A DNA stretch of 64,000 bases from a virus (taxonomy: Duplodnaviria; Caudoviricetes): positions 12,269 to 76,268 of the IMG/VR virus record IMGVR_UViG_3300031992_000079; one strand, given 5' to 3'. The translations under genes were made by a program, and so were the position numbers. The notes below the pieces were generated by a model, which had not been told where the DNA came from, did not search any database, and worked only from the letters and a program-made list of their open reading frames with translations. Positions 49,122 to 58,340 of the stretch are shown in pieces. Every line of letters starts with the position of its first letter. Position 1 is the first letter of the stretch.

Positions 49122-49145
49122 AAAAAAGCCCCTTATACAGGGGCT
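49122..49145 (-). terminator. Intrinsic terminator downstream of the tRNA cluster
   Basis: On the - strand: AGCCCC-TGTATAA-GGGGCT-TTTTT. Confidence 0.8.
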
Positions 49146-49175: not shown

Positions 49176-49250
49176 TGGTGGTGAGAGTAGGATTCGAACC
49201 TACGACTACTCTTTTTAGGAGTCTACCTTAAGCCACTCAGCCATCTCACC
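49176..49250 (-). tRNA. Atypical tRNA-like gene, anticodon loop CT-AAA-AA (nominal Phe-AAA; possibly a pseudo-tRNA)
   Basis: GGTGAGA/TCTCACC acceptor plus A-CCA; canonical GTAGG-TTCGAAT-CCTAC T arm; class II-like D arm; 4-bp anticodon stem; short variable region. Confidence 0.6.
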
Positions 49251-49334: not shown

Positions 49335-49410
49335 TGGCGGGGATAGTAGGGATTGAACCTACGACATAGCGATTAACAGTCGCTCGCTCTACCAACTGAG
49401 CTATATCCCC
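49335..49410 (-). tRNA. tRNA-Asn(GTT)
   Basis: Full cloverleaf, AGCGA-CTGTTAA-TCGCT, encoded CCA. Confidence 0.93.
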
Positions 49411-49415
49411 ATAAC

Positions 49416-49443
49416 TGGCAGGGATGTAAGGATTTGAACCTTA
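49416..49443 (-). pseudogene. Orphan tRNA 3' half (T arm + acceptor 3' strand + GCCA)
   Basis: On the - strand: TAAGG-TTCAAAT-CCTTA-CATCCCT-G-CCA. No matching 5' half (AGGGATG) was seen. The TAA is also the HNH stop codon. Confidence 0.75.
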
Positions 49444-49935
49444 ACACTCTCTTAAATTTTGATAATAATTTTCTCTTGTGTACAAGCGATGAATACATGT
49501 TTTTGCTACATTAAACATTTTCGCTAATGCTCTTTGAGAGAGAATATGCTTATTATCAAAAATAAATTTTATGTCTTCTTTTGTTAATTTTCTTTTATTA
49601 CTATTTTTATGGTTATCTAAGTATTTATTTACATTTTCTTTAGGTGTAACCCATTCTAGATTAGAAACTGAACAATTAGTTTTATCCTCATCAATGTGAT
49701 TAACCATTGATAGGTTATTAGGATTTGGAATAAAAGTTTCTGCAACTGCTTTGTGCAATCTTATTGCTTTAGTTTTACCTCTTTGCCCTAATGGTAGATA
49801 TACATATAAATATCCACAATTTTTACGGAAAGACTTTTTATAAACTTTTCCTGTTTTTGTATTAGTTACATTTCCTTCAGTATCAATCAAAAATTGATTA
49901 TATACTTCACCCTCATAAACAAGGGGGAATTGCAT
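49441..49935 (-). mobile_element. Free-standing HNH homing endonuclease (NUMOD4/HNH_3 with C-terminal HTH)
   Basis: LHKAVAETFIPNP....VNHIDEDKTNCSVSNLEWVT.KEN. ATG at 49935; the frame stays open upstream to a GTG at 49998 inside tRNA-Gln. Confidence 0.88.
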
Positions 49936-49937
49936 AA

Positions 49938-50012
49938 TGGCAGGGAGAGATGGAATCGAACCATCCTTACATGAGTCAAAGTCACGTGTAATAACCACTA
50001 TACCATCTCCCT
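49938..50012 (-). tRNA. tRNA-Gln(TTG)
   Basis: Full cloverleaf, CGTGA-CTTTGAC-TCATG, G-CCA end. Confidence 0.88.
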
Positions 50013-50100: not shown

Positions 50101-50185
50101 TGGTGCCCGTAGAGAGATTCGAACTCACACTGCCTATGGCGAGGGATTTTAAATCCCTTGTGTCTACCAATTCCACCATACGGGC
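50101..50185 (-). tRNA. tRNA-Leu(TAA)
   Basis: 85-nt class II tRNA, AGGGA-TTTAAAA-TCCCT, long variable arm, A-CCA end. Confidence 0.92.
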
Positions 50186-50337
50186 TTAAACTGTTCTAAC
50201 TTTCTTCTAGTATTGTATAAGCGATTATTTCTACACCATACACATGAACCATGATTACGACAGGTTACATCTACTGCTCTTGAATCATGATATGGTTTAC
50301 GGTGTTCTTTACCATGTTCTATTGCTTTTTCTAACAT
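50164..50337 (-). CDS. Small Cys/His-rich protein (57 aa) overlapping the 5' end of tRNA-Leu
   Basis: Not in the ORF track. AGGAG RBS; MLEKAIEHGKEHRKPYHDSRAVDVTCRNHGSCVWCRNNRL..., a motif familiar from small phage proteins. Confidence 0.75.
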   Translation of the reverse strand: MLEKAIEHGKEHRKPYHDSRAVDVTCRNHGSCVWCRNNRLYNTRRKLEQFKPVWWNW

Positions 50338-50350
50338 AGTGTACTCCTAA

Positions 50351-50582
50351 TGGGTGACCTGTCAAATACTTCCAAACGCACAGGTCTGTATGCACTTACA
50401 CCATAGTCCCCTGACCTATAGGGCCCTGGTCTTCCTGAGGACTACCAGACTTTACTGGACTTCCCTTTCGTGAAAAGGAGTACGTGCTACATACTTTTCA
50501 TTGGGGTGTGCATCTGTGGCACCATCTGCTAGCTGACACGTGGCCAGTCGTGGTAATTCAAACCCACTTACACAGATGCACA
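50351..50582 (-). ncRNA. Structured non-coding RNA containing permuted tRNA-like module(s)
   Basis: GC-richer, ORF-free segment between tRNA-Ile2/Met and the small ORF. It has a perfect 12-bp closing helix plus several hairpins whose G-U wobbles all work on the - strand. Confidence 0.6.
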
Positions 50583-50586
50583 AAAC

Positions 50587-50661
50587 TGGTGGCCCCACTA
50601 GGACTCGAACCTAGACTCTTGCAGTTATGAGCTGCTTGCTTCTCCTTTAAGCTATGGGGCC
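50587..50661 (-). tRNA. tRNA-CAT, probably Ile2 (lysidine type) rather than Met
   Basis: Loop CT-CAT-AA; GGCCCCA/TGGGGCC acceptor resembles Ile2 tRNAs. Confidence 0.8.
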
Positions 50662-50768
50662 AAAAGAGTCTTATGCAGACTCCAAAATTATGATTTCAAA
50701 AATCAGGCGAAGATAATCAAGTTTAAGTTAAAAACAAAAACCTGAGGATTGACCTCATCTAGATTGTA

Positions 50769-58326: not shown

Positions 58327-58340
58327 GAAGGGCGAAGCCC
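58321..58340 (-). promoter_or_regulatory. Candidate GAA-triloop hairpin promoter
   Basis: + strand TCAC-CAGAA-GGGC-GAA-GCCC, 8 nt beyond the primase stop. Confidence 0.45.

Follow-up and report, generated by a model that had tools for sequence, protein, structure and literature searches.

Phage tRNA clusters are usually annotated as tRNA genes separated by junk spacers. Two small stable RNAs of the phage T4 tRNA operon, RNA C (species 1) and RNA D (species 2), are not tRNAs; they are presumably matured along with the tRNAs. Among tRNA-like RNAs, the closest described family by arm order is YrlA (RF02553), the tRNA-like Y RNA of bacteria and phages that is bound by Rsr/Ro60 (PMC4201824). In YrlA, a T-like stem-loop, a closed stem-loop and a D-like stem-loop follow one another, the 5' and 3' termini come together in a long anticodon-side helix, and the Ro60-binding helix carries a conserved GNCGAAN0-1G motif (PMC4201824). 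For uncultured phages, a catalogue drawn from IMG/VR holds 10,006 structured RNA candidates that are supported by covariation and unnamed, some of them tRNA-like (Fremin and Bhatt 2023, PMC10690425).

The window analyzed here is a 64-kb stretch (64,000 nucleotides) of the complete 76,268-nt record of an uncultured phage, and one of its tRNA-cluster spacers holds a conserved, covarying RNA gene, called the element below. It is encoded in the sense of the tRNAs, with tRNA-Met before it and tRNA-Leu after it, and its relatives also lie in tRNA operons; in this it is like T4 RNA C and RNA D, from which it differs in being smaller, in having a four-way junction and in being a predicted RNA. No homology to T4 rnaC or rnaD was found by word-11 blastn over 50,697 GenBank phage records, where the matches were to Bacillus and Aeribacillus phages at the level of chance. 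In Rfam, no family matches the element at gathering thresholds or at E <= 10, whether the 64 kb, 2 kb or 96 nt are searched, and no published description was found. No such family is named in the catalogue paper (PMC10690425), although this one may be among its unnamed candidates. As far as these comparisons reach, the family would be new, as the earlier note on this DNA had surmised when it spoke of a new class. We consider it fairly probable that the element is a structured RNA gene (~76-85 nt) of an undescribed family, carried as an optional, exchangeable cassette of tRNA operons and built as a partial, permuted mimic of tRNA; the mimic was probably derived from tRNA sequence.

The tRNA operon and the fold of a single sequence

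The window phage is an N4-like podophage, as judged from its 4,858-aa ORF, family-A DNA polymerase, primase-like protein and SU10-type portal. Seven tRNAs, all on the minus strand between 49176 and 50661, are detected by ARAGORN and by Rfam alike. Read along that strand, the order is tRNA-Met, the element, a second RNA module (unit A), ORF57, tRNA-Leu, tRNA-Trp and tRNA-Gln, followed by an HNH endonuclease gene, an orphan tRNA 3' half, tRNA-Asn, tRNA-Thr, tRNA-Phe(AAA) and a terminator-like hairpin. The features discussed below are, in window coordinates:

50587-50661, minus strand: tRNA-Met(CAT), upstream operon neighbor of the element (ARAGORN and Rfam)
50583-50586, minus strand: conserved 5' spacer GUUU, which separates the element from the upstream tRNA's CCA
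50507-50582, minus strand: the element, 76 nt, beginning 4 nt after tRNA-Met(CAT)
50571-50582, minus strand: closing helix P1, 5' strand UGUGCAUCUGUG, 11 bp conserved, from G 50581
50550-50567, minus strand: hairpin 1, T-arm-like, 5-bp stem and 7-nt loop UURRAUU
50533-50547, minus strand: hairpin 2, 5-bp stem and nearly invariant, self-complementary pentaloop CACGU
50519-50529, minus strand: hairpin 3, 3-bp stem and loop GAUGG (GAAG in the relatives of clade 2, below)
50507-50518, minus strand: closing helix P1, 3' strand CACAGAUGCACA, from the fold, the inverted repeat and the alignment
50500-50506, minus strand: 3' tail CCCCAAT, the end of the cassette relative to the empty site described below
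50351-50499, minus strand: unit A RNA, ~150 nt, non-coding, between the element and ORF57
50164-50337, minus strand: ORF57, 57 codons, a basic, Cys-rich protein (...CRNHGSCVWCRNNR...)
49441-49998, minus strand: HNH endonuclease gene, then the orphan tRNA 3' half (region 49416-50012)
49127-49145, minus strand: terminator-like hairpin at the end of the tRNA operon

The minus strand reads as the earlier note had set it out, from 4 nt after the CCA of tRNA-Met, with a closing helix around three hairpins that it had labeled T arm, closed acceptor (hairpin 2) and D arm (hairpin 3); the last of these joins the 3' strand of P1 without intervening bases. The minimum-free-energy fold of 50502-50586 has the 12-bp helix and hairpins of 4, 5 and 3 bp at -30.7 kcal/mol, and the plus strand folds worse than the minus strand. 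Taken by itself, the sequence does not carry the case. The z-score of the fold is a modest -2.07, with 6 of 200 shuffles folding equally well, and perfect inverted repeats of 12-13 nt with arms less than 120 nt apart occur six times in the window, the other five inside long ORFs; thus, for the single sequence alone, neither the fold nor the helix is beyond chance. Moreover, hairpin 1 of the window copy has a bulged A in its stem and an ambiguous register. The G+C content of the element is 52%, against 37% for the window, and the element is thus G+C-rich, as tRNAs are.

Two other readings of the stretch were rejected. It is not coding: in two close relatives (L012 and L014) a TAG codon interrupts the minus frame that crosses the element, and the plus frame takes non-synonymous changes. 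Nor is it a terminator, no U tract following the helix.

Relatives, compensatory changes and strand

Relatives were found through the neighboring small proteins ORF57 and ORF53, through one metagenome scan and through one scan of a genome collection; of the two covariance models used, R1 was made from the single sequence and R2 later from the family. The element is found in three contexts. Clade 1 consists of close relatives of the window (L012, L014), in which it again comes after tRNA-Met. Clade 2 (L031-L037) is a more distant N4-like group with element matches of E ~1e-17; here the element follows tRNA-Gln via a GUUU spacer and, unit A being absent, leads directly into the ribosome-binding site of the ORF57 homolog. 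The third context is a 79.7-kb contig binned as a Rickettsiales MAG (L041/L045), where the element scores 84 bits (E ~1e-19) and where genes for a large terminase, a tail-sheath stabilizer and a baseplate hub are present. Because of the sheath and baseplate genes, and because this contig has only the element and tRNAs in common with the window and no homolog of the window's DNA polymerase, it is a myophage unrelated to the window phage. Its copy (L041 1100-1225, minus strand, the same as L045 9100-9225) stands at the end of the tRNA operon, after an ORF, and a direct repeat of 11 nt without mismatch, ATAGAGCCTTT, lies on either side of it; despite the unrelated genome, the element is ~90% identical. 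At least two kinds of uncultured phage that are not related to each other thus carry it in their tRNA operons, and since these differ in tail type and replication system, its function would seem to be portable between hosts and phages.

A (G/C/A)UUU spacer comes before the element whether the upstream neighbor is tRNA-Met (window, L012, L014), tRNA-Gln (L031-L037) or the ORF (L041). The tail, taken with the last base of the helix, reads ACC(C)(C)A in six of the seven distinct sequences; the tails in the N4-like groups are ACCCCA, ACCCAA, ACCCAU and ACCAUU, that of L035-L037 is exactly ACCA, and that of L041 is CUCUAA. Beside the myophage copy, UAGAG and CUCUA could lengthen the closing helix, and terminator-like hairpins come next.

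Some lineages do without the element. In three close relatives, L027, L028 and L029, ORF53 and tRNA-Met are kept and the site is empty, reading CCACCA-GTTT-GAAAAAG; the gap is a clean 83 nt that corresponds to 50500-50582 of the window. In L046, a relative of clade 2, a scar at 304-331 joins GTTTAGTG to TGTCATAGATGCAC, with an (A)GTG microhomology where the first 8 nt of the element meet its final 20-odd nt, from which it follows that the element was lost by internal deletion in one clade 2 lineage. From the clean empty site and the deletion scar together, the element is optional and dispensable. In both whole records that were searched it is present as a single copy.

The known distribution is one of uncultured phages. 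Megablast and blastn searches of cultured phages returned only tRNA-Leu and chance matches, and no homolog of the element. Five DNA-pattern scans of IMG/VR gave nothing or chance matches, the first two patterns having taken in positions that are variable in the relatives, and IMG/VR searches anchored on proteins (the 717-aa protein, the primase-like protein and PolA) reached only distant phages with no tRNAs nearby. One match from the metagenome scan (L015) and three from the genome collection (L039, L040, L042) were set aside as chance. A functional link to ORF57 was also considered and dropped: the two co-occur in the N4-like groups, but in the myophage 18 kb separates them, and many homologs of ORF57 are without an element nearby.

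The covariation set consists of seven distinct sequences. Clade 2 differs from the window at roughly 20 of 85 positions, as counted on the alignment, and most of the changes in stems are compensatory. Five pairs change on both sides with pairing kept, namely one in P1 (14-71, G-C to A-U), two in hairpin 1 (20-37 and 22-35, both G-C to A-U) and two in hairpin 2 (40-54, C-G to U-A, and 41-53, U-A to G-C). P1 pair 8-77 is G-C or G-U, and hairpin 2 pair 43-51 is G-U or G-C, with one A.C mismatch in clade 2; in all, three stem changes beyond the five compensated pairs are from G-C to G-U. In the stem of hairpin 3, a G-C to G-U change is the sole variation and nothing is compensated. Three of the four helices are thus backed by compensatory changes, all of which lie on essentially one split, clade 2 versus the rest. 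Over the seven sequences 93% of the cells pair, against 17-50% when the partners are slid by 1-3 columns. In 15 cells both partners are changed; shuffles give 6.4 +/- 1.6, with none of 500 attaining 15, and the slid controls give 0-3. RNAalifold, given the seven sequences, favors a different interior, and that fold has only one covarying pair.

Hairpin 1 depends on the register chosen. In clade 2, AUAGG-UUAAAUU-CCUAU forms a 5-bp stem free of mismatches around a 7-nt loop. In clade 1, in the simplest register, the only variable stem position (column 21: U, A, C) breaks its pair, and a register with a bulged A accounts for this seeming break; in clade 1 and L041 it gives five pairs and the loops UUGAAUU or UUAGAUU. 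The alternative register has its own compensatory pairs, 22-37 and 25-33, and it is supported by the second of these, where U25-A33 becomes C25-G33 in L041.

The strand is clear. Read on the opposite strand, the G-U pairs of columns 8-77, 43-51 and 58-68 would become A.C, and the R2 model scores 99.8 bits on the minus strand versus 15.7 on the plus strand, which bears out the remark in the earlier note that the wobbles work on the minus strand only. Since five pairs covary and the G-U pairs fit only the minus strand, the element is an RNA gene. Thus the note's idea of a discrete structured RNA inside the tRNA operon, and the homolog and covariation check that it had put forward, are answered by conservation with compensatory changes, in relatives from three contexts and at five pairs among seven sequences. 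Its drawing holds in part. The 12-bp closing helix is perfect in the window and comes to 11 bp in the relatives, where the outermost U-A (5-80) is A.A or U.C; and the middle hairpin, its closed acceptor, is present and covaries, though as drawn it needs a bulged A.

Likeness to tRNA, possible roles and rival explanations

The likeness of the element to tRNA (RF00005), or to a permuted tRNA, consists in its tRNA size, a cloverleaf-like four-helix junction, a T-arm-like hairpin, a tRNA-like spacing after the upstream tRNA and, in most members, a terminal helix followed by ACC(A). The conserved GUUU spacer, the G at the first conserved helix position and the ACC(C)(C)A tail together resemble a tRNA acceptor end; this is given little weight because L041 lacks the ACC tail. 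The T arm is the better comparison. In tRNA it is a 5-bp stem with the 7-nt loop U-U-C-R-A-N-N, and the element has 5 bp and UURRAUU without C56, the third loop position ('56') being U, G or A and never C. On a position profile made from 27 distinct phage tRNA T arms of these loci, hairpin 1 of clade 2 scores 13.1 bits and is the top non-tRNA match in its contig; in 128 kb of window sequence, both strands counted, three matches besides the orphan tRNA half reach 13.1 bits or more. Hairpin 1 of the window is unranked on this profile because of its bulge. The T loop of a true tRNA-Gln that stands beside the element in L031, UUUGAAU, has the very letters found in window hairpin 1. For the T arm proposed from the single sequence, the five base pairs, the conserved 7-nt loop and, in clade 2, the score speak in favor, and the bulged A that the original drawing needs and the missing C56 speak against.

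Other tRNA features that had been read from the window sequence are not kept by the relatives. The T8 of the proposed core ('U8') is C in three of the seven sequences, and the GG of the proposed D arm is lost in clade 2, where GAUGG becomes GAAG, in a hairpin that shows no covariation. The permuted order itself stands, in that hairpin 1 precedes the D-like hairpin; the YrlA topology that was read into it finds no match among the YrlA, tRNA and tmRNA models of Rfam, which give nothing on the element in a search of 96 nt. The element is missed by ARAGORN as well as by the Rfam tRNA and tmRNA models, and both approaches detect the seven tRNAs; ARAGORN likewise reports no tmRNA. When the element was un-permuted in silico and given an anticodon loop, ARAGORN rejected it at default settings and drew a poor cloverleaf only at the 80% threshold. 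The element has no anticodon-loop equivalent, and for that reason the decoy for anticodon nucleases suggested in the earlier note is unlikely.

The route that we have in mind for a partial tRNA mimic in a tRNA operon is that it would be transcribed together with the tRNAs and freed by the enzymes that mature them, with RNase P or RNase E cutting at the GUUU spacer and 3' trimming to follow, so as to yield a stable small RNA. Once freed, the RNA would work in trans through its invariant loops UURRAUU and CACGU, whose conservation in the alignment suggests recognition by a protein or an RNA; most likely it would bind a protein that normally recognizes part of the tRNA shape. A 76-nt RNA is easily synthesized, which makes the element a small and tractable addition to the short list of tRNA-like RNAs that are not tRNAs, and, having no Ro60 partner, it could be used to test whether partial tRNA mimicry serves processing, regulation or counter-defense.

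The strongest competitor, which we nonetheless think unlikely, is that the element has no function in trans and is a cis-acting part of the tRNA/mRNA transcript, such as a processing site, a folding insulator between modules or a stabilizer of the 5' end of the downstream RNA. It always lies at the junction of modules (tRNA and unit A, tRNA and the ORF57 ribosome-binding site, ORF and terminators), and in clade 2 its tail enters the ribosome-binding site of ORF57 directly. The sequence of the closing helix is conserved, as the site of a nuclease or other protein would be, and a dispensable element is what this explanation would lead one to expect. However, the loops UURRAUU and CACGU and the junction bases are conserved as strongly as the helix, and three covarying arms are more than a plain processing hairpin would call for. 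Moreover, the ~90% identity is maintained in the myophage despite a different downstream context, with terminator-like hairpins and neither ORF57 nor unit A.

A bolder form of the mimic reading, and one to which we give distinctly less credit than to the mimic itself, is that these are Ro60-independent permuted tRNA mimics that titrate or mislead a host protein which reads the tRNA body, and that they serve as a mobile counter-defense cassette. The target may be a tRNA-sensing or tRNA-cleaving defense, or a tRNA-processing enzyme. If so, an RNA cassette would be traveling between unrelated phages together with their tRNA genes.

Mobility of another kind has to be weighed, namely that the element is MITE-like, a non-autonomous mobile DNA inserted beside a tRNA, with the 12-bp helix as its terminal inverted repeat. 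Several features are those that such a DNA would have: the element is present in some lineages and cleanly missing from its site in others, its ends are 12-nt inverted repeats without a mismatch, phages with no other relationship share it at ~90% identity, and the L041 copy has the 11-nt direct repeat ATAGAGCCTTT around it. The element is, however, single-copy in both genomes searched whole, no target duplication is present at the window's site and no transposase match was seen in the window; its internal hairpins are kept by compensatory changes, and its G-U pairs are sensible only in an RNA of the tRNA sense. Phage tRNA genes are likewise exchanged as cassettes. On balance a MITE-like origin seems very unlikely.

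In its arm order, T-like, closed and D-like with an open long helix, the element agrees with the tRNA-like domain of YrlA (PMC4201824), and some YrlA RNAs are phage-encoded. The differences are several. The D-like arm of the element is tiny (3 bp and a loop of 4-5 nt), the elbow nucleotides of the RNA are not conserved, and the closing helix pairs throughout and lacks the bulges that Ro60-binding stems have. The YrlA model gives no match on the element at E <= 10 in 2 kb or in 96 nt, the only weak match in the region being on a tRNA, 49386-49444. Neither strand of the closing helix has a GNCGAA motif, and GNCGAAG is absent from 50500-50590. A family with the UACAGCAA handle was also considered and rejected, the motif being absent from the tRNA cluster and from the closing helix. 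In the complete 76,268-nt genome, TROVE (PF05731) has no match at E <= 1, control genomes being matched, and VWA has none; thus the earlier remark that no Ro60-binding motif can be seen holds for 50500-50590, and the remark that there is no Ro60 gene now extends from the window to the whole genome. The element fails as a Y RNA in model match, in binding motif and in a Ro60 gene, and it is highly improbable that it is a true YrlA-type RNA whose Ro60 comes from the host or has diverged beyond recognition. Just as hard to credit is a decaying tRNA remnant or a functionless chance fold, a reading that could draw on the z-score of only -2.07, an inverted repeat that is not unusual, the loss of the element in some lineages and the orphan tRNA half in the same cluster, but that is largely refuted by the covariation data, given compensated conservation across three contexts including an unrelated phage, G+C far above background, and 11 bp and three arms kept intact as decay would not keep them.

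Neighboring modules of the operon

Unit A, which lies next to the element in the window, has a fold of its own, in which an 11-bp closing helix encloses three hairpins and is followed by a 7-bp terminal hairpin and ACCCA. An alignment of six sequences shows seven compensatory pairs, and the adjacent 181 nt that contain it match no Rfam family. It was found in the window and in L012, L013, L014, L027-L029 and L038, and is better sampled than the element. Because unit A is present in L027-L029, which have no element, and missing from clade 2, which has one, it is a separate conserved structured module and not part of the element. Two conjectures about it were abandoned. A resemblance to RNase P RNA, through a string like GGAAGUCC, has no support in Rfam, and the hairpin concerned is deleted in L012. 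Homology was also considered for a stretch of L013 and L038 that precedes unit A and looks like the element; both covariance models miss it, and it is analogous at most.

An extra module, unit B, was noted at L014 2977-3070 and L027 641-745. Its terminal hairpin, GACUGGU...ACCAGUC ACCC, is paralogous to that of unit A, and in L014 it is flanked by a direct repeat, CACCCATTA, which suggests that cassettes are swapped at common 3' ends. ORF57 is itself an indel that L027 does not have; the stop codon of this ORF extends into the start of the tRNA-Leu gene. From the unit B paralog and its repeat CACCCATTA, and from the ORF57 indel, the stretch of the operon around the element is seen to be a mosaic of cassettes, and segment-by-segment identities agree. 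ORF57 has no Pfam or PHROGs match; in a word-limited search, 413 homologs are listed among uncultured phages.

The tRNA genes nearby show changes of their own. Between the window and L014, tRNA-Met differs by eight changes that, on reading the sequences, make up four compensatory pairs. Directly 5' of tRNA-Met, at 50666-50683 on the minus strand, is a hairpin GGAGUCU-GCAUA-AGACUC followed by UUUU; it is kept in L012, L014 and L027-L029, with a compensatory-looking change in L027 (GGAGCCU...AGGCUC). In L012 (614-688) and L014 (3399-3472) there is an intact tRNA-Gln(TTG) with a matching AGGGATG/CATCCCT acceptor, which implies that in the window the HNH insertion, a second tRNA-Gln and tRNA-Trp have replaced the 5' part of that tRNA. 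At the position of the window's tRNA-Phe (49176-49250), which has the unusual anticodon AAA, ARAGORN reports in clade 2 a tRNA with a four-base anticodon (aaaa), at L031 1345-1420 and also in L032-L034. The tRNA cluster of the myophage (L045 9770-12050, minus strand) contains five strong T-arm-like 17-mers, of 11-17 bits, outside the ARAGORN calls; these may be missed non-canonical tRNAs or more tRNA-like RNAs.

Two observations concern the wider genome. GNCGAAG occurs at 12 sites in the window where 2.4 are expected, a number reached by 0 of 100 shuffles; the sites are mostly GGCGAAG on the plus strand (for example 50706-50712 and 58331-58337), and the excess may reflect a phage promoter or hairpin motif. 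A DUF2201 (VWA-like) gene is present in the same phage outside the window (G000:C1:2085-2456), and in clade 2 an AAA_5 (MoxR-like) gene is paired with DUF2201 at a distance of about 1 kb downstream from the tRNA-Leu located after the element, the sites noted being L031 2886-4262 and L026 6973-8168.
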